Origin: Eledone cirrhosa
Taxonomy: Eukaryota
Direction: 5' to 3'
Length of the DNA: 64,000 nucleotides
Assembly: GCA_964016885.1 (NCBI GenBank)
Contig: CAXHJY010000645.1
Location: 1-64,000 of the forward strand
Shown: positions 8,641-49,373 of the stretch, in pieces
Layout: the number at the start of each line of letters is the position of its first letter
Numbering within the stretch: the first letter of the stretch is position 1
Translations under genes and position numbers: made by a program
Notes under the pieces: generated by a model
What the model saw: the letters and a program-made list of their open reading frames with translations, nothing else
What the model was told of the DNA's origin: nothing
Database searches by the model: none

Positions 8641-8850
8641 AGGTGGATGGCAGTATCGGTAGAGCGTCTGACGCCATGCTTTGCAGCAAAGAGTTACGGC
8701 CCTTACCATTCTGAGTTCAAATCCCGCCGAGGTTAACTTTGCCTTTCATCCTTACGAGGTCGATAAAATAAAGTACCAGTAATGTACTGGGGTCGATTTA
8801 ATCGACTTTCCCCTTCCTCCAAATTACTGGCCTTGTGCCTATACTAGAGA
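8641..8850 (+). mobile_element. tRNA-derived SINE (copy 1 of a tandem trio)
   Basis: A-box-like TGGCAGTATCGG, B-box GAGTTCAAATCC, body AACTTTGCCTTTCATC..GTCGATAAAATAAAGTACCAG. Confidence 0.85.
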
Positions 8851-9047
8851 AAGGGCGGTGGATTGGCAGTATCGGGAGAAGAACGGACGCTATGCTTTTT
8901 CAGCATGGAGTTACGGACTTTTATAATCTGAGTTCAAATCCCGCCGAGGTTAAGTTTGCCTTTTATCATCAAGGGGTCGATAAAATAAAGTATCAGTAAT
9001 GTATTGGGGTTATGGCTGGCCTTGTACCCAAAGCAGAAACAATTATT
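8851..9047 (+). mobile_element. tRNA-derived SINE (copy 2)
   Basis: Head AAGGGCGGTGGATTGGCAG, B-box, AATTATT tail. Confidence 0.85.
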
Positions 9048-9237
9048 GGTGAATTGGCAGTATCGGTAGAGGGTTGGACGTTATGCTTTCTAGCATAGTT
9101 ACGTCCCTTTATGGTCGGAGTTCAAATCCCGTCGAGGTTAACTTTGCCTTTCATCCTTATGGGATCGATAAAATAAAGTACCAGTAATGTACTGGGTTAA
9201 TTGCTGGCCTTGTGCCAAATGTAGAAACAATTATTAT
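9048..9237 (+). mobile_element. tRNA-derived SINE (copy 3)
   Basis: Head GGTGAATTGGCAGTATCGG, B-box, (ATT)n tail. Confidence 0.85.
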
Positions 9238-9295
9238 GTATTATATACGAAAATTGGTTGATTTTTATTTCTTTTATTAATTCGCTGAATGCTTC

Positions 9296-16148: not shown

Positions 16149-16718
16149 ATAACCTCGGGTTAACCTATGTCTTGTCTTGTTAATGGCCATTAACTTAACG
16201 GTTTGACAAAACATGATCGATAATCTCGGGTTAACCCATGTCTTGTCTTGTTAATGGCCATTAACTTAGCGGTTTGAAAAAACATGATCGATAACCTCGG
16301 GTTAACCTATGTCTTGTCTTGTTAATGGCCATTAACTTAGCGGTTTGACAAAACATGATCGATAACCTCGGGTTAACCTATGTCTTGTCTTGTTAATGGC
16401 CATTAACTTAGCGGTTTGACAAAACATGATCGATAACCTCGGGTTAACCTATGTCTTGTCTTGTTAATGGCCATTAACTTAGCGGTTTGACAAAACATGA
16501 TCGATAACCTCGGGTTAACCTATGTCTTGTCTTGTTAATGGCCATTAACTTAGCGGTTTGACAAAACATGATCGATAACCTCGGGTTAACCTATGTCTTG
16601 TCTTGTTAATGGCCATTAACTTAGCGGTTTGACAAAACATGATCGATAACCTCGGGTTAACCTATGTCTTGTCTTGTTAATGGTCATTAACTTAGCGGTT
16701 TGACAAAACATGATTGAT
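16149..16718. repeat. 71-bp tandem repeat, 8 copies
   Basis: Unit ATAACCTCGGGTTAACCTATGTCTTGTCTTGTTAATGGCCATTAACTTAGCGGTTTGACAAAACATGATCG; starts at 16149, 16220, 16291...16646. Confidence 0.97.
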
Positions 16719-18752
16719 AAAATAGGACGTGGTCATTGCCACCAACTTCAACGTCGAAATTCTACAAACTCACCACCACCACCACCATAACAACCACAAC
16801 AACAACAGCAACAACAACCAACGTAAGAAGTCTTAATATTCTGAAATTTGTAAAGCCCGCCACCAGCCATCACATCCACCACCACCATCACTATAACCAC
16901 TTTCACTACCACCATCACGAACACCTAGCCCACCAATACCACCACCACGTTCTAAACCACTACGAACACCACCACCACCACAACCACCTTCACCACCAAC
17001 AACACTACTACCACCACCACCACCACCACCACCGCCACCACCACACCACCACCACACCATAACACCAACACACCACCAAACCATAACACCAACACACCAC
17101 CACCACACCAACACACCACCACCGCACCATAACACCAACACACCACCAAACCATAACACCAACACATCACCACCACGCCATAACACCAACACACCACCAA
17201 ACCATAACACCAACACATCACCACCACACCAACACACCACCACCGCACCATAACACCAACACACCACCAAACCATAACACCAACACACCACCACCACACC
17301 AATACACCACCACCGCACCATAACACCAACACACCACCACACCATGACACCAACACATCACCACCACGCCATAACACCAACACATCACCACCACGCCATA
17401 ACACCAACCCACCACCACACCACCACCACACCACCACCAAACCATAACACCAACACACCACCACCACCACACCAACACACCACCACCGCACCATAACACC
17501 AACGCACCACCACCACACCACCAAACTATAACAACAACACACCACCACCACACCTCACACCACAACCAAACTATAACACCGCCACACAACCACCACACCA
17601 CCACTACACCACCACCACACAACCACCACACAACCACACCACCACACAACCACCACACATCCAACACAGCACAACACCAACACACCACCAAACCATAACA
17701 CCAACACATCACACCACCACCACTCCACCACTCCACCACCACACCACCACTCCACCACCACACCACCACCACACTATAACACCAACACACCACCAAGCCA
17801 TAACACCAACACACCACCGTCACATCACCATCACACCACACGACCACACGAACACAGCACCATCACCACACCACACCACACTGTCACATTACCATCACCG
17901 CACAATCACCCACACACCATCGCTACCACTGACACAACACACTACCACAACACCACACCACCACACACCACCACCACCACACCACCACCACTACACCACC
18001 ACCACACCACCACCACCACACCACCACCACCACACCACCGACACACAGACAGAATCTATCAGTCGTAATTAAATCACTGTTGATGAGCTGGGCAAAAGTC
18101 AGTTCATTGCATTCATTGCATTTTAACACAATATGGTAACTCTCGTTGAAAGGAGAAAAAATCACGCACAATTCTCGCTCGTTCACGCAAACTACCGCGC
18201 AACATAAAACACAATAGAAATTTATTTCTAGATGGACAGTTTGTTTTATCATATCCTATTTTATTTTAAATATTTCTCTTCGTTTTTATCCCCCCTTTAT
18301 TCTTTGCTTTTTGCTTTTTGGCTTTTCCGCCATTTTAAAAATGTTGTTGTTATTTTTAGTTTCTAGAATAACGCCATGTTCTTATTTATTTTCTATTTGT
18401 TTGTTACATATAGTTTCTATTGCATTAAAAAAAATAGTTATCCATTTTTTTCTGTATTTTTTCTCTTCATGTTACCGATGTTGTCGTTTATTTTAAAATG
18501 GACGCTACAATTTTCCTTTTTGTTAACGGCCTCTCTCGTCAGTTTTTAAAATACTAGAAATTTTTTTTCAAAACGATGACGCGTTTGTGTATATATGTGT
18601 GCGTGTGTGTATCTGTGTGCGTGTATATATATATATATGTGTGTGTGTGCGTGTGTATATATAGGTGTGCGTGTGTGTATGCGTGTGCTTGTGTGTATGT
18701 GTGTGCTTGTGTGTATATGTGTGTATGTGTTTGCGTGTATGTGTGTGTATGT

Positions 18753-33317: not shown

Positions 33318-34069
33318 CGTTTTTCTAATTTTCGCTATAGTTTTCCTTCTCTTCTTTGTGTGTGTTCGTCCGTTCTCCTTTTATAACCAATGCAATTATT
33401 ATTATCGTCATCATCATCATCACCATCATCATCACCATCACCATCGCCATCATCATCACCATCATCGTGATAGTCATCACCATCATCATCATCGGCATCG
33501 TCATTGTAATCGTCAGCATCATACAAATAAAAATAATCATCATTATCATCATCATCATCATCATCATCATTAGTTATCATCACCATCACCATCACCATCA
33601 CCAACACCATTATAATCGTCAGCATCATACAAATAAAAATAATCATTATCATCATCATCATCATCATAATAATCGTCAGCATCATACATAAAAATAATCA
33701 TCATCATCATCATCATCATCATCAGTTATCATCACCATCACCATCATCATCATCGTCATCATTATGAATCCTCAGCATCATACAAACAATCATCGTTATC
33801 ATCATCATCATTCTATTAATCATCATTATTATTATATTAACCATCATCACCATCGCCATCTTTAATAATCATCATCATCATCAGCATTATAAGCGTCATC
33901 ATACAAACAAAAAAATCATCATTATCGTCATCACCATCATCATTATATTAACCATCATCATTAAAATCATCATCATCATCATCATCGTTATAGTTACCAT
34001 CACCATCACCATCATCATCATCATTATAATCATTATAATCGTTATCATAAAAAATAATAATAATAATCA

Positions 34070-35935
34070 TCATCATCATATTAACCATCATCGTCAACAT
34101 CATTATATTAACCATCATCATCATCATCATTATATTAACCATCATCATCATCATCATTATATTAACCATCATCAACATCATCATTATATTAACCATCATC
34201 ATCATGTTAACCATCATCATCATCATCATTATATTAACCATCATCATCATCATCATTATATTAACCATCATCATCATTATATTTACCATCATCAACATCA
34301 TTATATTAACCATCATCATTATATTAACCATCATCATCATCATCATTATATTAACCATCATCATCACCATCATTATATTAACCATCATCATCAACATCAT
34401 TATATTAACCATCATCATCATCATCATCATTATATTAACCATCAGCATCATTATATTAACCATCATCATCATCATCATTATATTAACCTTCATCATCATC
34501 ATTATATTAACCATCATCATCATCATTATATTAACCATCATCATCATCATTATATTAACCATCATCATCATCATCATTATATTAACCATCATCATCATCA
34601 TCATTATATTAACCACCATCATCATCATCATTATATTATCCATCATCATCATATTAACCATCATCATCATCATTATATTAACCATCATCATCATCATTAT
34701 ATTAACCATCATCATCATATTAACCATCATCATCATCATTATATTAACCATCATCATCATTATATTAACCATCATCATCATCATCATTATATTAACCATC
34801 ATCATCATTATATTAACCATCATCATCAATATCATTATATTAACCATCATCATCATCATTATATTAACCATCATCATCATTATATTAACCATCATCATTA
34901 TATTAACCATCATCGTCATTATATTAACCATCATCATCATCATCATCATTATAACCATCAGCATCATTATATTAACCATCATCATCACCATTATATTAAC
35001 CATCATCATCATCATTATATTAACCATCATCATAACCATCATTATATTAACCATCATCATCATCATCATCATCATTATATTAACCATCATCATATTATAT
35101 TAACCATCATCATCATTATATTAACCATCATCATCATCATCATTATATTAACCATCATCATCATCATTATATTAACCACCATCATAATTATATTAACCAT
35201 CATCATCATCATTATATTAACCATCATCATCATATTAACCATCATCATCATATTAACCATCATCATCATTATATTAACCATCATCATCATTATATTAACC
35301 ATCATCATCATTATATTAACCATCATCATCATCATCATTATATTAACCATCATCATCATCATTATATTAACCATCATCATCAATATCATTATATTAACCA
35401 TCATCATCATCATTATATTAACCATCATCATCATTATATTAACCATCATCATCATCATTATATTAACCATCATCATCGTCATTATATTAACCATCATCAT
35501 CATCATTATATTAACCATCATCATCATCATCATCATTATATTAACCATCATCATCGTCATTATATTAACCATCATCATCATCATCATTATATTAACCATC
35601 ATCATCATCATCATCATCATTATATTAACCATCATCATCATCATTATATTAACCATCATCATCATCATTATATTAACCATCATCATAATCATCATTATAT
35701 TAACCATCATCATCATCATCATCATTATATTAACCATCATCATATTATATTAACCATCATCATCATTATATTAACCATCAGCATCATCATCATTATATTA
35801 ACCATCATCATCATCATTATATTAACCATCATCATCGTCATTATATTAACCATCATCATCATCATCATTATATTAACCATCATCATCATCATTATATTAA
35901 CCATCATCATCATCATTATATTAACCATCATCATC
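34070..35935. repeat. Satellite ATTATATTAACC(ATC)n
   Basis: Many tandem units with a variable ATC count. Confidence 0.97.
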
Positions 35936-35960: not shown

Positions 35961-36162
35961 AAGGGCGGTGGATTGGCAGAATCGGTAGGGGGTAGGACGC
36001 CATGCTTTGACGCATCGAGTTACGGCCCTTGTCATTCTGAGTGCAAATCCCGCCGAGATTAACTTTGCCTTCCATCATTACGGTGTCGATAAAATAAAGT
36101 ACCATAATGCACTGGGGTAATTGCTGGCCTTGTGCCAAAAGTAGACAACAATTATTATTATT
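35961..36162 (+). mobile_element. tRNA-SINE with an intact head, opening the array
   Basis: AAGGGCGGTGGATTGGCAGAATCGG..; headless copies follow at 37377, 38924, 40292, 41603, 43161, and a truncated one at 44584-44623. Confidence 0.85.
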
Positions 36163-36168
36163 GGTGAA

Positions 36169-37376
36169 ATCGGACGTCTTTCGCTCGCTCCCAGTAAGTC
36201 GCTTTATTTACCTGGTATAATTATTTGTTGTTAAATCTTTGTTGTGTAAGGAATATAAACCCTAGGACTTTGCCCTGTGAAGGGGAAAGTATAATATTTG
36301 GGCCTTTTGGCCCAAATATTTTAACCTTATTTGAACATTTTACTTTTGAAAATTTAAAAAAAAAAAAAACATGGCTGAGCCACGCCGCCCAGAAATGTGT
36401 CTGCTGTCGTGGGACAAAGGTGTAAAAGTTTAGAGGAGGGTTAGTGAAATTCATACAACAAACACCACCACAAACAACGTGAACAAATACAACAATGTTG
36501 CGTCGAGGACCAGGCATGCCGTGGCTGAGGCTGCGACATCTCTGGTACCTTCTTGACGGTGAACAGGTGTGGTCGCCATTTGCCAGACGCCATTTTCGCC
36601 AGCTCGTCTCATTGACAGAGCTGCAGTCCTGAATCAGGAAAAGACCGAAGTATAGCGATTGGAAGCAGGAATGTCTCCAAGCGCTCACCGCCCTCTACCA
36701 GCTGGGCACTAGTATCGGTGGAACATGCACCTCGGCGTTCTATAGATGGCTAGTGGAGGGAAAGGGCGCCGACGCAGTTTTCATCTGCCTGGTGGCCATG
36801 GCGAAAGAGATTGTGTGGTGGCCATGGCCGAAGAGATTGTGTGGTGGCCATGGCGAAAGAGATTGTGTGGTTGACATGGTCGAAGAGATTGTGTGGTGGC
36901 CATGGCGAAAGAGATTGTGTGGTGGCCATGGCGAAAGAGATTGTGTGGTGGCCACGCGCGAAAGAGATTGTGTGGTGGACAAGGTTGAAAGGGTTAAAGA
37001 CGGACACTTTCCTCTTCGGATAATCCCTGATTAACTTTTTCAAGTTTCACTTGAAGAGGAAAATCAGGGTGGAGAGGTAAGTTTGTTGAAAGGTGGGTAA
37101 AAGTAACGAGTCTGGTCCGAGTGAACGGGCCCGCTCTGAGTATGCGCCTGTAGACTGAGAGAGGGCGCTTGCCCTGGTGATCAGGATGGCCGTGGTCATT
37201 TTTGTGTGATTTTCGCCACGAGTGACCCCTAAGGTTTCCCCTCTTTTGGGGGAATTTTTGTTTGATTTTTTTTTATATCTAGCCCGGTTTTGTTATAACC
37301 TATTTACACGACCAAAACCCACTTTGTATCGTCCTGTACTGTACTGTGGCGTCTCTAATGTTTTTCTTCGTGTTAG
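36169..37376 (+). mobile_element. Internally deleted L1/Tx1-clade LINE remnant, unit 1
   Basis: Structured 5' leader, ATG at 36371, then ORF2-like pieces GPGMPWLRLRHL, AKEIVWWTR, KFVERW, and a 3'UTR; stop codons present. Confidence 0.7.
36791..36990. repeat. 26-bp VNTR, 7 copies
   Basis: GAGATTGTGTGGTGGCCATGGCGAAA. Confidence 0.97.
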
Positions 37377-37569
37377 GGCAGTATCGGTAGAGGGTGGGCA
37401 CCATGCTTTGACGCATACAATTACGGCCCTTGCCATTCTGAGTTCAAATCCGGCCTAGATTAACTTTGCCTTTCATCATTACCGGGTCGATAAAATAAAG
37501 TACCATAATGCACTGGGGTAATTGCTGGCCTTGTGCCAAAAGTAGACAACAATTATTATTATTGGTGAA

Positions 37570-38923
37570 ATCGGACGTCTTTCGCTCGCTCCCAGTAAGT
37601 CGCTTTATTTACCTGGTATAATTATTTGTTGTTAAATTTTTTTTGTTGTTTAAGGAATATAAACCCTAGGACTTTGCCTTGTGAAGGGGAAAATATAATA
37701 TTTGGGCCTTTTGGCCCAAATATTTTAACCTTATTTGAACATTTTACTTTTGAAAATTTAAAAAAAAAAAAAACATGGCTGAGCCACGCCGCCCAGAAAT
37801 GTGTCTGCTGTCGTGGGACAGCGGTGTAAAAGTTTAGAAGTGGGTTAGTGAAATTCATACAACAAACACCACCACAAACAACGTGAACTAAGACAACAAC
37901 AATAAGAACACTAATTTAAAAAATAAATTACCACACCAACTACAACAATAACAGCGTCAACCAAAATACAGACAACAGAAAAAAAAATGACAACAAATGT
38001 AACAACGTTGCGTCGAGGACCAGGCATGCTGTGGCCGAGGCTGCGACATCTCTGGTACCTTCTTGACGGTGAACAGGTGTGGTCGCCGTTTGCCGGACGC
38101 GTTTTTCGCCAGCTCGTCTCCTTGACGCAGCTGCAGTCCTGGATCAGGAAAAGACCGAAGGATAGCGCTTGGAAGCTGGAATGTCTCCAAGCGCTCACCG
38201 CCCTCTACCAGCTGGGCACTATCGGTAGAACATCCAACTCGGCGTTCTATAGATGGCTAGTGGAGGGAAAGGGCGCCGACGCAGTTTTCATCTACCTGGT
38301 GGCCATGGCGAAAGAGATTGTGTGGTGGACAAGGTTGAAAGAGATTGTGTGGTGGCCATGGCCGAAGAGATTGTGTGGTGGCCATGGCGAAAGAGACTGT
38401 GTGGTGGCCATGGCGAAAGAGATTGTGTGGTGGCCATGGCGAAATAGATTGTGTGGTGGCCATGCGAAAGAGATTGTGTGGTGGCCATGGCGAATGAGAT
38501 TGTGTGGTGGACAAGGTTGAAAGGGTTAAAGCGGACACTTTCCTCTTCGGCTAATCCCTGATTAACTTTTTCAAGTTTCACTTGAAGAGGAAAATCAGGG
38601 TGGAGAGGTAAGTTTGTTGAAAGGTGGGTAAAAGTAACGAGTCTGGTCCGATTGAACGGGCCCGCTCTGAGTATGCGCCTGTAGACTGAGGAGTGGGAAA
38701 ACTGAGAGAGGGCGCTTGCCCTGGTGGTCAGGATGGCCGTGGTCATTTTTGTGTGGTTTTCTCCACGAGTGACCCTCAGAGGTTTCCCCTCTTTTGGGGA
38801 AATTTTGTTTGATTTTTTTTTATATCTAGCCCGGTTTTGTTATAACCTATTTACACGACCAAAACCCACTTTGTATCGTCCTGTACTGTACTGTGGTGTC
38901 TCTAATGTTTTTCTTCGTGTTAG
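37570..38923 (+). mobile_element. Tx1-like remnant, unit 2 (has an extra ~106 bp)
   Basis: As unit 1, with additional sequence at 37889-37994. Confidence 0.7.
38298..38522. repeat. 26-bp VNTR, 8 copies
   Basis: Same unit. Confidence 0.97.
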
Positions 38924-39117
38924 GGCAGTATCGGTAGAGGGTGGGACACCATGCTTTGACGCATACAATTACGGCCCTTGCCATTCTGAGTTCAAATCCG
39001 GCCTAGATTAACTTTGCCTTTCATCATTACCGGGTCGATAAAATAAAGTACCATAATGCACTGGGGTAATTGCTGGCCTTGTGCCAAAAGTAGACAACAA
39101 TTATTATTATTGGTGAA

Positions 39118-40291
39118 ATCGGACGTCTTTCGCTCGCTCCCAGTAAGTCGCTTTATTTACCTGGTATAATTATTTGTTGTTAATTTTTTTTTGTTGTGTA
39201 AGGAATATAAACCCTAGGACTTTGCCCTGTGAAGGGGAAAGTATAATATTTGGGCCTTTTGGCCTAAATATTTTAACCTTATTTGAACATTTTACTTTTG
39301 AAAATTTAAAAAAAAAAAAAACATGGCTGAGCCACGCCGCCCAGAAATGTGTCTGCTGTCGTGGGACAACGGTGTAAAAGTTTAGAGGAGGGTTAGTGAA
39401 ATTCATACAACAAACACCACCACAAACAACGTGAACAAATACAACAATGTTGCGTCGAGGACCAGGCATGCCGTGGCTGAGGCTGCGACATCTCTGGTAC
39501 CTTCTTGACGGTGAACAGGTGTGGTCGCCATTTGCCAGACGCCATTTTCGCCAGCTCGTCTCATTGACAGAGCTGCAGTCCTGAATCAGGAAAAGACCGA
39601 AGGATAGCGATTGGAAGCAGGAATGTCTCCAAGCGCTCACCGCCCTCTACCAGCTGGGCACTAGTATCGGTGGAACATCCAACTCGGCGTTCTATAGATG
39701 GCTAGTGGAGGGAAAGGGCGCCGACGCAGTTTTCATCTGCCTGGTGGCCATGGCAAAAGAGATTGTGTGGTGGCCATGGCGAAAGAGATTGTGTGGTGGC
39801 CATGGCAAAAGAGATTGTGTGGTGGACATGGCCGAAGAGATTGTGTGGTGGCCATGGCGAAAGAGATTGTGTGGTGGACAAGGTTGAAAGGGTTAAAGAC
39901 GGACACTTTCCTCTTCGGCTAATCCGTGATTAACTTTTTCAAGTTTCACTTGAAGAGGAAAATCAGGGTGGAGAGGTAAGTTTGTTGAAAGGTGGGTAAA
40001 AGTAACGAGTCTGGTCCGAGTGAACGGGCCCGCTCTGAGTATGCGCCTGTAGACTGAGGAGTGGGAAAACTGAGAGAGGGCGCTTGCCCTGGTGGTCAGG
40101 ATGGCCGTGGTCATTTTTGTGTGGTTTTCGCCACGAGTGACCCTCAGAGGTTTCCCCTCTTTTGGGGGAATTTTGTTTGAATTTTTTTGACTTCTAGCCC
40201 GGTTTTGTTATAACCTATTTACACGACCAAAACCCACTTTGTATCGTCCTGTACTGTACTGTGGCGTCTCTAATGCTTTTCTTCGTGTTAG
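39118..40291 (+). mobile_element. Tx1-like remnant, unit 3
   Basis: Near-identical to the other units. Confidence 0.7.
39743..39889. repeat. 26-bp VNTR, 5 copies
   Basis: Same unit. Confidence 0.97.
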
Positions 40292-40485
40292 GGCAGTATC
40301 GGTAGAGGGTGGGACACCATGCTTTGACGCATACAATTACGGCCCTTGCCATTCTGAGTTCAAATCCGGCCTAGATTAACTTTGCCTTCCATCATTACCG
40401 GGTCGATAAAATAAAGTACCATAATGCACTGGGGTAATTGCTGGCCTTGTGCCAAAAGTAGACAACAATTATTATTATTGGTGAA

Positions 40486-41602
40486 ATCGGACGTCTTTCG
40501 CTCGCTCCCAGTAAGTCGCTTTATTTACCTGGTATAATTATTTGTTGTTAATTTTTTTTTGTTGTGTAAAGAATATAAACCCTAGGACTTTGCCCTGTGA
40601 AGGGGAAAGTATAATATTTGGGCCTTTTGGCCTAAATATTTTAACCTTATTTGAACATTTTACTTTTGAAAATTTAAAAAAAAAAAAAACATGGCTGAGC
40701 CACGCCGCCCAGAAATGTGTCTGCTGTCGTGGGACAACGGTGTAAAAGTTTAGAGGTGGGTTAATGAAATTCATACAACAAACACCACCACAAACAACGT
40801 GAACAAATACAACAATGTTGCGTCGAGGACCAGGCATGCCGTGGCTGAGGCTGCGACATCTCTGGTACCTTCTTGACGGTGAACAGGTGTGGTCGCCGTT
40901 TGCCAGACGCGTTTTTCGCCAGCTCGTCTCCTTGGCGGAGCTGCAGTCCTGGATCAGGAAAAGACCGAAGGATAGCGCTTGGAAGCTGAAATGTCTCCAA
41001 GCGCTCACCGCCCTCTGCCAGCTGGGCACTAGTATCGGTGGAACATCCACCTCGGCGTTCTATAGATGGCTAGTGGAGGGAAAGGGCGCCGATGCAGTTT
41101 TCATCAGCCTGATGGCCATGGCGAAAGAGATTGTGTGGTGGACATGGCCGAAGAGATTGTGCGGTGGCCATGGCGAAAGAGATTGTGTGGTGGACAAGGT
41201 TGAAAGGGTTAAAGACGGGCACTTTCCTCTTCGGCTAATCCCTGATTAACTTTTTCAAGTTTCACTTGAAGAGGAAAATCAGGGTGGCGAGGTAAGTTTG
41301 TTGAAAGGTGGGTAAAAGTAACGAGTCTGGTCCGAGTGAACGGGCCCGCTCTGAGTATGCGCCTATAGACTGAGGAGTGGGAAAACTGAGAGAGGGCGCT
41401 TGCCCTGGTGGTCAGGATGTCCGTGGTCATTTTTGTGTGGTTTTCGCCACGAGTGACACTCGGAGGTTTCCCCTCTTTTGGGGGAATTTTTGTTTGAATT
41501 TTTTTGACTTCTATCCCGGTTTTGTTATAACCTATTTACATACCAAAACCCACTTTGTATCGTCCTGTACTGTGGCGTCTCTAATGTTTTTCTTCGTGTT
41601 AG
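40486..41602 (+). mobile_element. Tx1-like remnant, unit 4
   Basis: Shortest VNTR (3 copies). Confidence 0.7.
41113..41205. repeat. 26-bp VNTR, 3 copies
   Basis: Same unit. Confidence 0.97.
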
Positions 41603-41796
41603 GGCAGTATCGGTAGAGGGTGGGACACCATGCTTTGACGCATACAATTACGGCCCTTGCCATTCTGAGTTCAAATCCGGCCTAGATTAACTTTGCCTTT
41701 CATCATTACCGGGTCGATAAAATAAAGTACCATAATGCACTGGGGTAATTGCTGGCCTTGTGCCAATAGTAGACAACAATTATTATTATTGGTGAA

Positions 41797-43160
41797 ATCG
41801 GACGTCTTTCGCTCGCTCCCAGTAAGTCGCTTTATTTACCTGGTATAATTATTTGTTGTTAAATTTTTGTTGTGTAAGGAATATAAACCCTAGGACTTTG
41901 CCCTGTGAAGGGGAAAGTATAATATTTGGGCCTTTTGGCCCAAATATTTTAACCTTATTTGAACATTTTACTTTTGAAAATTTAAAAAAAAAAAAAACAT
42001 GGCTGAGCCACGCCGCCCAGAAATGTGTCTGCTGTCGTGGGACAACGGTGTAAAAGTTTAGAGGAGGGTTAGTGAAATTCATACAACAAACACCACCACA
42101 AACAACGTGAACAAATACAACAATGTTGCGTCGAGGACCAGGCATGCCGTGGCTGAGGCTGCGACATCTCTGGTACCTTCTTGACGGTGACCAGGTGTGG
42201 TCGCCGTTTGCCGGACGCGTTTTTCGCCAGCTCGTCTCCTTGACGGAGCTGCAGTCCTGGATCAGGAAAAGATCGAAGGATAGCGCTTGGAAGCTGGAAT
42301 GTTTCCAAGCGCTCACCGCCCTATACCAGCTGGGCACTAGTATCGGTGGAACATCCACCTCGGCGTTCTATAGATGGCTAGTGGAGGGAAAGAGCGCCGA
42401 TGCAGTTTTCATCTGCCTGATGGCCATGGCAAAAGAGATTGTGTGGTGGCCATGGCGAAAGAGATTGTGTGGTGGCCATGGCCGAAGAGATTGTGTGGTG
42501 GCCATGGAGAAAGAGATTGTGTGGTGGCCATGGCGAAAGAGATTGTGTGGTGGCCATGGAGAAAGAGATTGTGTAGTGGCCATGGAGAAAGAGATTGTGT
42601 GGTGGCCATGGCGAAAGAGATTGTGTGGTGGCCATGGCGAAAGAGATTGTGTGGTGGCCATGGAGAAAGAGATTGTGTGGTGGCCATGGAGAAAGAGATT
42701 GTGTGGTGGACATGGCGAAAGAGATTGTGTGGTGGACATGGCCGAAGAGATTGTGTGGTGGACAAGGTTGAAAGGGTTAAAGACGGACACTTTCCCCTTC
42801 GGCTAATCCCTGATTAGCTTTTTCAAGTTTCACTTGAAGAGGAAAATCAGGGTGGAGAGGTAAGTTTGTTGAAAGGTGGGTAAACGTAACGAGTCTGGTC
42901 CGAGTGAACGGGCCCGCTCTGAGTATGCGCCTGTAGACTGAGAGAGGGCGCTTGCTCTGGTGATCAGGATGGCCGTGGTCATTTTTGTGTGATTTTCGCC
43001 ACGAGTGACCCCTGAGGTTTGCCCTGTTTTGGGGGAATTTTTGTTTGATTTTTTTTTTATATCTAGCCCGGTTTTGTTATAACCTATTTACACGACCAAA
43101 ACCCACTTTGTATCGTCCTGTACCGTTCTGTGGCTTCTCTAATGTTTTTCTTCGTGTTAG
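41797..43160 (+). mobile_element. Tx1-like remnant, unit 5
   Basis: 227-aa ORF 42123-42806 reads through 13 VNTR copies. Confidence 0.7.
42421..42773. repeat. 26-bp VNTR, 13 copies
   Basis: Same unit. Confidence 0.97.
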
Positions 43161-43353
43161 GGCAGTATCGGTAGAGGGTCGGACACCATGCTTTGACGCA
43201 TACAATTACGGCCCTTGCCATTCTGAGTTCAAATCCGGCCTAGATTAACTTTGCCTTCCATCATTACCGGGTCGATAAAATAAAGTACCATAATGCACTG
43301 GGGTAATTGCTGGCCTTGTGCCAAAAGTAGAAACAATTATTATTATTGGTGAA

Positions 43354-44583
43354 ATCGGACGTCTTTCGCTCGCTCCCAGTAAGTCGCTTTATTTACCTGG
43401 TATAATTATTTGTTGTTAAATGTTTCTTGTTGTGTAAGGAATATAAACCCTAGGACTTTGCCCTGTGAAGGGGAAAGTATAATATTTGGGCCTTTTGGCC
43501 CAAATATTTTAACCTTATTTGAACATTTTACTTTTGAAAATAAAAAAAAAAAAAAAACATGGCTGACCCCGCCCCCCAGAAATGTGTCTGCTGTCGTGGG
43601 ACAACGGTGTAAAAGTTTAGAGGAGGGTTAGTGAAATTCATACAACAAACACCACCACAAACAACGTGAACAAATACAACAATGTTGCGTCGAGGACCAG
43701 GCATGCCGTGGCTGAGGCTGCGACATCTCTGGTACCTTCTTGACGGTGAACAGGTGTGGTCGCCATTTGCCAGACGCCATTTTCGCCAGCTCGTCTCATT
43801 GACAGAGCTGCAGTCCTGAATCAGGAAAAGACCGAAGGATAGCGATTGGAAGCAGGAATGTCTCCAAGCGCTCACCGCCCTCTACCAGCTGGGCACTAGT
43901 ATGGGTGGAACATCCACCTCAGCGTTCTATAGATGGCTAGTGGAGGGAAAGGGCGCCGACGCAGTTTTCATCTGCCTGGTGGCCATGGCGAAAGAGATTG
44001 TGTGGTGGCCATGGCGAAAGAGATTGTGTGGTGGCCATGGAGAAAGAGATTGTGTGGTGGCCATGGCGAAAGAGATTGTGTGGTGGCCATGGCGAAAGAG
44101 ATTGTGTGGTGGACATGGCCGAAGAGATTGTGTGGTGGCCATGGCGAAAGAGATTGTGTGGTGGACAAGGTTGAAAGGGTTAAAGACGGACACTTTCCTC
44201 TTCGGCTAATCCCTGATTAGCTTTTTCAAGTTTCACTTGAAGAGGAAAATCAGGGTGGAGAGGGAAGTTTGTTGAAAGGTGGGTAAAAGTAACGAGTCTG
44301 GCCCGAGTGAACGGGCCCGCTCTGAGTATGCGCCTGTAGACTGAGCAGTGGGAAAACTGAGAGAGGCCGCTTGCCCTGGTGGTCAGGATGGCCGTGGTCA
44401 TTTTTGTGTGGTTTTCGCCACGAGTGACCCTCGGAGGTTTCCCCTCTTTTGGGGGAATTTTTGTTGTTGGAATTTTTTTTGACTTCTAGCCCGGTTTTGT
44501 TATAACCTATTTACACGACCAAAACCCACTTTGTATCGTCCTGTACTGTACTGTGGCGTCTCTAATGTTTTTCTTCGTGTTAG
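43354..44583 (+). mobile_element. Tx1-like remnant, unit 6
   Basis: Near-identical to the other units. Confidence 0.7.
43978..44176. repeat. 26-bp VNTR, 7 copies
   Basis: Same unit. Confidence 0.97.
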
Positions 44584-44750
44584 GGCAGTATCGGTAGAGG
44601 GTGGGACACCATGCTTTGACGCAGAGAATTACATGACGGTGGAAAGAATAGCTATATCATTATATATATATATATATATATGTATTATATATATACATAT
44701 GTAATATATATATATATGTAATATATACATATGTAATATATATATATATG

Positions 44751-44791
<41 letters not shown>

Positions 44792-44802
44792 ATATATATA
44801 TA

Positions 44803-44935
44803 ACGAAGGAAATGTGATAAGGAACCAGGTGTACCATAACGCACCAAAGTACTCAATACTTAGGGTGGTAGAGTGCGTAATAGGAACAAGTAAGACCCCG
44901 ACGGCTTGAGCTCAGCCGTCGGGGTCTTACTTGTT

Positions 44936-44939
<4 letters not shown>
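44803..44939 (-). mobile_element. Hairpin-plus-tail element (F9)
   Basis: Homolog of 21441-21575. Confidence 0.7.
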
Positions 44940-44977
<38 letters not shown>

Positions 44978-44981
<4 letters not shown>

Positions 44982-45249
44982 TGTAATAAACAACATGAGG
45001 CAATTATTCCATTTACCAGAGGTTTCTTAAAAGCAAAAAATGTTGCTTTCAATCATCAGAATGAAAAAATCCTGGAGACCAGGATTTTTTCATTCTGATG
45101 ATTGAAAGCAAAATTTTTTGCTTTTAAGAAACCACTGGTAAATGGAATAATTGCCTCGTGTTGTTTATTACATAACTATTAAGCTCTGTTACCTAGATAG
45201 AGCACTCTTTTTTCCTGGACTTTTCCGACGGAATTACTTCATTTATACA
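44978..45249 (+). mobile_element. Fold-back element with tail (F10)
   Basis: ~100-bp arms centred on 45077 plus a ~70-bp tail; shorter relative at 22057-22200. Confidence 0.7.
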
Positions 45250-47856: not shown

Positions 47857-48233
47857 TTCTCATACTGGGATCTTCTCGGTGCACTGTCAATATATACTGT
47901 ATATATATATATTTAGCCTAAGAAAATATCTATATGCGTGTGTAATTTATACACGCATATATTTATTTTTTAAATTTCAATTGAGTTCTTAACACGTTGG
48001 ATTGATAATGTTTTCGAATAAACTGATTAACCCGCGTGTATATTATTTTTTTTCCTCCTTTCGTGGATCGTAGTTGTCTCCCCTTCCCGCTTAGTGACGC
48101 TATAACACTTCCTCAGTCAAAAGCTGCTGGAATTTCAAATTTGCCGGTCATTCGATGCGGGAAGGAGCAACTTAACGGACATGATTTTTAACCGTGGTAA
48201 GAAATGTTTTTCTCATATCAAGGTTTAATAGGC

Positions 48234-48358
48234 TTCCACTGATGATTTATAAACGCCCACCTAAATATATTCTTACATGAATGTATATTAGGCTTCTACA
48301 TAAACTGGAAATATTCTCCGAATTTGTAGAAAACTTATAATGAAACAATTGTTTGGAA
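48234..48358 (+). ncRNA. Type I hammerhead ribozyme with a long stem II insert (F7)
   Basis: TTCCA-CTGATGA-tTTATAA...TTATAAt-GAAA-CAATTG-TT-TGGAA. Confidence 0.7.
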
Positions 48359-49024
48359 AGAGAGATATATTTTAACTTTAATTATATCTCATAAAATAAT
48401 ACAACTGGCTTTTCCACATAATACATATTGTTAGCACCCCAAACACTTAAATTGGGTTTATATTAAAATATAACCTAATGTTTGTTGAGTGAGATGGTTA
48501 CCAGTCAGAGATTAGCTTTAAACTATCTCTGTTATTGTATTAATATATATATATATATATATATATATAGGGGGGTTCTCCTACATGAATATAAATTAGT
48601 GGCCGTACTCGAAAACGAGTTGGCAGCCACCATATATATATATATACTGGGATCTTGTCGGTCCACTGTCATCCAATAGAGCTTTTTTTCTTGTGGAGTG
48701 AGAGACCCCTAGTCTTCATTAAACATCTCTCTAGGAGAAGATCACTCTCTATATAAAATTTGTGACTTCGTTTGTATCCAATGATGTACACCAGTTGTTT
48801 TGGGACAAATGCATCCGATGTTCAGAGAGTAGGATTGGCAAAGACTTTCTTCACTTAAAAATAAACTCAAGCACAGGCATCATTTGATGTGAGTTTTTTC
48901 GCAATGCATGGTATTGCTGGCCATAGGCAAGTCCCTAGCTGGACTAAAAAGCCACGTCCGTGATGCTCATGTTTAAGTATCAAGCGATGGCATAACTCGA
49001 AATCGAATTGCAGACATTATATAT

Positions 49025-49143: not shown

Positions 49144-49171
<28 letters not shown>

Positions 49172-49175
<4 letters not shown>

Positions 49176-49373
49176 AAAAGAGTTAGGTCTTCGACGGCTG
49201 AGCTCCGGCCGTTTTGACGGCTAGATTCGAACTGATCCGGACCTAGCTGTCGAAACGGCCGGAGCTCAACCGTCGGGGTCCTGACTCTTTTCCTATTACC
49301 CACTCTACTACCCTAAGTATTGAGTACTCTGGTGCGTTATGGTCCACCTGGTTCCTTACCACACTTTCTTTGT
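49172..49373 (+). mobile_element. Hairpin-plus-tail element (F9), opposite orientation
   Basis: Reverse complement of the 22257-type element. Confidence 0.7.

Follow-up and report, generated by a model that had tools for sequence, protein, structure and literature searches.

The window analysed here is the first 64,000 nucleotides of contig CAXHJY010000645.1 from the 3.0-Gb Eledone cirrhosa assembly GCA_964016885.1; the contig is unplaced, 133,122 bases long and rich in microsatellites. Positions 35961-44632 hold six head-to-tail units of 1311-1558 bp, each made of a 5'-clipped SINE and a LINE remnant, with seven SINE pieces alternating with six LINE remnants, all on the plus strand. Measured from SINE start to SINE start, the units are 1402, 1547, 1368, 1311, 1558 and 1423 bp long, and from one SINE anchor the periods are 1401, 1548, 1368, 1311 and 1558 bp, reproducing those of an earlier note on this DNA except for the last, which had been given as 1557. 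With the VNTR and the first 115 columns left out, the units are 95.9-98.4% identical to one another, far above chance, and each carries 2-16 private substitutions. The SINE makes up about 14% of a unit and the LINE-derived part comes to about 1.0-1.15 kb, VNTR aside.

The left flanking SINE (SINE A, 35961-36162) is complete, with an intact head, an (ATT)n tail and a private T>G change in its B box, and the last piece (44584-44632) stops about 49 nt in, in line with the intact first and truncated last SINE described before. The five inner SINEs (37377-37563, 38924-39111, 40292-40479, 41603-41790 and 43161-43347) lack the first 14 nt, starting at nt 15, and retain the B box and most of the A box. 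The family has A- and B-box-like motifs (judged against the box consensus), a length of about 200 nt, an (ATT)n tail and many dispersed copies, including 21 near-full ones in the loci fetched. By boxes, size, tail and dispersal it would belong to the tRNA-type Pol III kind, in agreement with the earlier reading of these pieces as Pol III-type SINEs; ARAGORN found no tRNA in it, and Rfam returned sub-threshold matches only.

The LINE remnants occupy 36163-37376 (unit 1), 37564-38923 (unit 2), 39112-40291 (unit 3), 40480-41602 (unit 4), 41791-43160 (unit 5) and 43348-44583 (unit 6). Unit 2 has the longest form, and we aligned it to three full-span parent copies of the same LINE family, described below. 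Its first part (37565-38005), about 440 nt long, covers the 5' UTR with the beginning of ORF1 and is followed by a 4.26-kb deletion (junction J1) that takes the rest of ORF1, the endonuclease and the reverse transcriptase (RT). The second part (38006-38280) is ORF2 downstream of the RT, retained as 28 and 247 nt on either side of a 21-bp gap, and ends at a 354-bp deletion (junction J2) within which, judged by position, the zf-RVT motif falls. The third part (38281-38923) is the end of ORF2 with a 17-bp gap, the VNTR and a 3' UTR that lacks its final ~23 nt as well as the (ATT)n tail, so that the remnant directly abuts nt 15 of the next SINE. Relative to the parents the remnant has thus lost 4.26 kb, 354, 21 and 17 bp together with the LINE 3' terminus and tail. 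Two further deletions are polymorphic within the array, one of 106 bp in five of the six units, unit 1 included, and one of 16 bp in units 1 and 5. The earlier description of ORF2 C-terminal-like pieces with no RT or endonuclease is borne out by this alignment to parents bearing EN, RT and zf-RVT, and by a Pfam search that gave no match for either of two unit ORFs tested.

Three junctions (J1, the 21-bp gap and the 354-bp gap) keep the reading frame, an outcome with a chance of about 1 in 27 when counted post hoc, and the 354-bp gap has GT..AG ends in a weak splice context without a pyrimidine tract. We read both features as chance; the original insertion may have come from a spliced RNA, which would still be a single event.

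The internal VNTR noted earlier consists of a 26-bp ORF2 stretch lying between two TGGTGG words, which is single in each of the three parents. It is present in 7 copies in unit 1 (~36786-36984), 8 in unit 2 (~38293-38516), 5 in unit 3 (~39738-39883), 3 in unit 4 (~41106-41199), 13 in unit 5 (~42414-42767) and 7 in unit 6 (~43973-44170). The same note had a structured leader and an ATG joined to the ORF2 pieces. The ATG is the start of the parent ORF1, and its frame closes after 20 codons in units 1-5 and after 17 in unit 6, which is frameshifted by a 1-bp deletion after the ATG; it therefore does not read through in frame into the ORF2 pieces. Among the 19 parent 5' copies in which the ATG was found, it opens frames of 76-222 aa in 7. 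The leader is the parent's ordinary 5' UTR, and its fold is modest (z -2.16, with 7 of 200 shuffles equally good). A protein-coding role for the units was considered and rejected, given that ORF1 either meets a stop at codon 21 or is shifted out of frame and that the two ORFs tested lack a Pfam match; the longest ATG-initiated ORF of each unit, whose size follows that of the VNTR between 74 and 227 aa, also counts against it.

At either end the non-SINE part matches a dispersed family of high abundance, with 5696 and 3200 first-look candidates, 40 of which were scored each time. Three loci carry both LINE ends about 5.9 kb apart and were taken as the full-span parents. These have an ORF1 with a CCHC-like motif, followed by an ORF2 with EN, RT and zf-RVT; four of eight parent ORF pieces matched Exo_endo_phos, RVT_1 or zf-RVT above the Pfam cut-offs, and the other four matched nothing. 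A longer-protein search gave four matches, one of them from Argonauta hians at 59%, and a homologue 71% identical to the parent led to relatives that are EN-RT-zf proteins of about 1150 aa. For this homologue the closest solved structure was human L1 ORF2p (E 3e-50), ahead of R2. The Pfam domains, the homologues and L1 ORF2p as the best structure together place the parent, from its sequence, in the L1/Tx1 group, and the homology to L1/Tx1 proposed earlier for the peptides holds at this group level, within which the Tx1 clade proper is a candidate placement. In Octopus vulgaris, 13 recently active L1-Tx1 families have been annotated (PMC13282606, Table 1). The parent LINE and the SINE may already be named in Repbase or in the repeat libraries of paper supplements.

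The parent LINE prefers (ATT)n sites, SINE tails included. ATT-type repeats precede 21 of 23 parent 5' ends and terminate 24 of 27 parent 3' ends, both being raw counts taken without a formal background; the 21 of 23 lie above the 20% that the available portion of PMC4494074 uses for a one-flank-type target preference, a property common in the Tx1 clade and not defining it. A same-strand SINE lies directly upstream of 8 of the 23 parent 5' ends (one of them rearranged) and within 320 bases downstream of 9 of the 27 parent 3' ends; the substrate for SINE-SINE crossover is thus common beside ordinary parent copies. Private deletions of more than 100 bp occur in 7 of the 27 dispersed 3' copies and in 4 of the 23 5' copies (within the 1.9 kb examined), making a deleted copy normal for the family.

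We searched the 3.0-Gb assembly for patterns specific to the array. The J1 pattern with up to 3 mismatches had 6 matches, all in the array (a stricter form had 5, missing unit 2); the J2 and LINE-SINE junction patterns had 6 each and the VNTR dimer pattern 29, again all within the array, at 36.4-44.6 kb of the contig. There were zero matches to any of the four patterns elsewhere in the assembly, and this confinement of three junctions and the VNTR implies that nothing moved as a unit. The earlier note had reasoned that dispersed copies would indicate a mobile composite and a single locus a macrosatellite; a single locus is what the assembly holds. The 354-bp gap is absent from all 27 dispersed 3' copies. 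No target-site duplication was found at the array, whose flanks share only a low-complexity 10-mer that does not abut its ends. Both array boundary patterns occur once in the assembly. Searching with flank DNA for another allele returned only a young dispersed repeat among the 40 candidates scored out of 8436, and no empty or single-unit allele was found in the assembly searches.

The SINEs themselves carry a probable record of exchange. The first SINE differs from the inner SINEs at 11 of 81 columns 5' of column 96 (about position 36057) and at 3 of 107 after it (Fisher p 0.009, the breakpoint having been chosen after the data were seen), in keeping with the distinct variants ascribed to it before. 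Compared with 21 other near-full SINEs, first and inner SINEs each carry their own changes before the breakpoint; after it they have five variants in common, three of which occur in 0 and two in 1 of the 21 other copies. The pattern fits inner SINEs composed of the 5' half of a right-hand SINE and the 3' half of the left-hand SINE, as expected from unequal crossover between direct repeats, and would put the crossover at 36055-36058 in the coordinates of the first copy, with the breakpoint set post hoc. The terminal remnant, which would be the 5' part of this right-hand SINE (SINE B), agrees with the variants of the inner SINEs at three sites and with the family at one.

The units are 5-8% away from the column majority of the family and 6-9% away from their closest fetched copy, more than the 3.5% median distance of the fetched family copies themselves (chosen as best matches to the array); the cassette had thus decayed before it was amplified. 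Units differ from one another by 2.3% over the 5' part; the figure for the 3' part is 5.5%, with T-runs there that align poorly. The informative sites group the units in mutually incompatible ways ({1,3,6} versus {2,4,5}, {1,5}, {2,3} and {3,4}), which demonstrates later exchange between them.

We also compared unit 4 with 4 of 10 sequencing runs, of which one (X1) is perhaps the assembly's own sample. In X1, unitigs run across the SINE-LINE junction, across J1 together with the 21-bp gap (31 letters on the short side) and across J2, and those over J1 and J2 have as many mismatches to unit 4 as unit 5 has. One has an A at 41085, which among the units is private to unit 5. The LINE-SINE junction was not among the X1 pieces listed. 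Three RAD runs (X8-X10) gave 0-1 reads at 41085, a site adjacent to J2 at which parent-family reads swamp the signal. Read joints of the 'goes back' type stem from the genome's many SINEs and were left aside. The junctions are thus supported by X1 unitigs, and the number of six units rests on the assembly, since none of the listed reads and contigs reaches across the whole array and the contig is unplaced.

Taken together, the array is a single-locus product of one decayed, internally deleted L1/Tx1-group LINE copy and a SINE, probably brought to six copies by DNA-level unequal crossing-over that began between two flanking SINEs, a route that the earlier note had offered as one option and that the hybrid inner SINEs support. 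The LINE would have come to sit behind the (ATT)n tail of one SINE, with a second SINE behind the LINE, in an insertion order that we infer. Deletions of 4.26 kb, 354, 21 and 17 bp, along with loss of the LINE end and of the second SINE's head, would have followed, probably by slippage or end-joining, as most of the deletions sit at 4-6-nt microhomologies. The 26-bp ORF2 piece between the TGGTGG words gave rise to the VNTR, presumably by slippage. The two SINEs, lying on the same strand, would then have paired out of register and crossed over immediately 3' of the B box, which duplicated the cassette and created the hybrid SINEs, and further unequal exchange and conversion would have produced the six units, whose mosaicism is observed. 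The array likely has no function and likely cannot retrotranspose. Several points count against this model: only 49 nt of the right-hand SINE remain and the crossover lies near nt 96, so that this SINE must later have lost its 3' part; two of the three late SINE differences (columns 123 and 125) need later mutation; and plain neutral deletion predicts neither the three in-frame junctions nor the GT..AG ends.

Much the same traces would be left if recombination between the SINEs had looped out a circle that was copied by a rolling-circle mechanism and then put back through homology, so that the multimer arose all at once; hybrid inner SINEs, confinement to one locus and the absence of a target-site duplication are expected on this route too. 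We consider it unlikely, because the 2-4% differences between units, the incompatible sites and the nested polymorphic deletions need repeated later exchange anyway, and because no copy of the type that a circle could seed occurs elsewhere. Still less likely is that the six-fold repeat is in part an assembly artefact, a shorter array over-expanded or built from mixed haplotypes. The unplaced, 133-kb, microsatellite-rich contig would favour this, as would the lack of a listed read piece spanning a whole unit and the possible identity of X1 with the assembly's own sample; the 2-16 private substitutions per unit, the range of 3-13 VNTR copies, the X1 unitigs that bridge three junctions (one with the unit-5-only A at 41085) and the single occurrence of both boundaries speak against it.

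Least credible of all is the idea that the parent LINE acts in trans to mobilise, as one unit, a non-autonomous mini-LINE or an SVA-like composite of SINE, LINE and VNTR, perhaps by way of a spliced RNA. The retained LINE 5' UTR and most of its 3' UTR, the B box and most of the A box in the inner SINEs, the GT..AG ends of the 354-bp gap and the three in-frame junctions could be cited for it, but dispersed copies of the junctions or VNTR are absent from the assembly, no target-site duplication was found, and the splice sites are weak and without a pyrimidine tract. The last ~23 nt of the LINE and its (ATT)n tail are missing as well, leaving no intact 3' end for target-primed reverse transcription. 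Pol III stops at T-runs, and its transcripts would end in the stretches of T4-T9 that follow each SINE within about 150 nt. The earlier proposal of a miniature non-autonomous LINE family accordingly reduces to a single decayed copy with private deletions, whose junctions are found nowhere else in the assembly and whose LINE 3' end is lost, and the alternative of a mobile SVA-like chimera likewise finds no support, for want of dispersed copies, tail and target-site duplication. SVA, the hominid SINE-VNTR-Alu element, is dispersed, has tails and target-site duplications, and is mobilised in trans; the array resembles it in combining parts of SINE, retroelement and VNTR origin and departs from it in being undispersed, tailless and free of target-site duplication or any sign of trans mobilisation. 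We see only a slim chance that a spliced, frame-keeping mini-LINE behind Pol III SINE boxes, with its own VNTR and present six-fold, represents a young SVA-like element or a small-RNA source, one that is transcribed (serving, for instance, as the template for piRNAs or siRNAs directed at the parent LINE and SINE) or has already given rise to copies that the assembly lacks.

The array is a TE-derived macrosatellite of a known kind, an ordinary local satellite and not a new mobile element. In the 'first steps' model, TE-derived satellites begin by unequal crossover between dispersed repeats (PMC6947457), and the table of that review includes the LINE-1-derived PROsat and the CR1-derived chicken satellites; that review and PMC9659126 cover satellites built from TE parts as well as minisatellites that arise from motifs lying between short repeats. 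Like the satellites of PMC6947457, the array has a monomer assembled from TE sequence, which crossover between homologous TE copies probably duplicated before it expanded, and an inner minisatellite whose motif is bounded by short direct repeats; unlike those described in the available part of that review, it has only six units at one locus in an octopod genome, and its monomer combines a SINE with a LINE that has several deletions but retains both ends. It shares a SINE within the monomer with the SINE-derived satellites of squamates, whose short loci have heterogeneous units and whose authors cite unequal recombination among abundant SINEs (PMC10702118), but these, as far as that text was available, are multi-locus and based on SINE parts, whereas here the SINE is a minor share of a unit at one locus. 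The parent LINE resembles the Tx1-clade elements Kibi, Koshi, Keno and Tx1-Mar (PMC4494074) in ORF1/ORF2 layout and microsatellite preference, and differs from target-preferring Tx1 LINEs in its target, (ATT)n not being among the targets given in the available portion of PMC4494074. The literature covered, which excludes Repbase, Dfam and subscription papers, holds no report of the array or of an (ATT)n-targeting octopod Tx1.

The array is a clean worked example of the birth of a satellite from TE debris, in which parent, deletion points, VNTR seed and crossover interval can all be read. Of more use is the finding that an abundant LINE of the L1/Tx1 group, with its preference for (ATT)n, stacks up behind the tails of SINEs, since SINE-LINE-SINE cassettes ready for unequal crossover should then be common in this genome.

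Three head-to-tail SINEs of the same family as the array SINE were found at 8642-9242 of the window. Since they differ from one another and share 82-87% identity with the first SINE of the array (35961-36162), they likely represent independent insertions.

The left end of the array adjoins a 2.5-kb (ATC)n-derived satellite (33404-35935), and a separate minisatellite, with a 71-bp unit present in 8.1 copies at 98% matches, is located at 16149-16720. By inspecting the sequence by eye, we also identified two MITE-like palindromic pieces with long inverted repeats, at 44790-45200 and 49170-49310, the latter of which (49.2-49.3 kb) looks like an inverted relative of the 44.80-44.94 kb segment. Between them lies a young dispersed repeat of ~660 bp (47912-48570); of its 8436 candidate loci, 40 were scored, and most of these carry it with 96-99% identity, often recurring at ~1-kb spacing, as on another sequence of the same assembly (G000:C4:226104974-226107654).

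Within unit 2 of the array, the ORF1/ORF2 reading frame is preserved across three deletion junctions (38006, 38034 and 38281), and the 354-bp gap is bordered by GT..AG ends; we attribute both features, probably, to chance.

The parent of these remnants is an abundant 5.9-kb LINE of the L1/Tx1 group with a preference for (ATT)n sites: among the dispersed copies retrieved (L008-L030 and L034-L063), (ATT)n was present at 21/23 5' ends and at 24 of the 27 3' ends. Copies were found stacked with SINEs and with older related LINE copies. The terminal ~25 nt are alike between the SINE and the parent LINE, a similarity which hints that the two may be partners.
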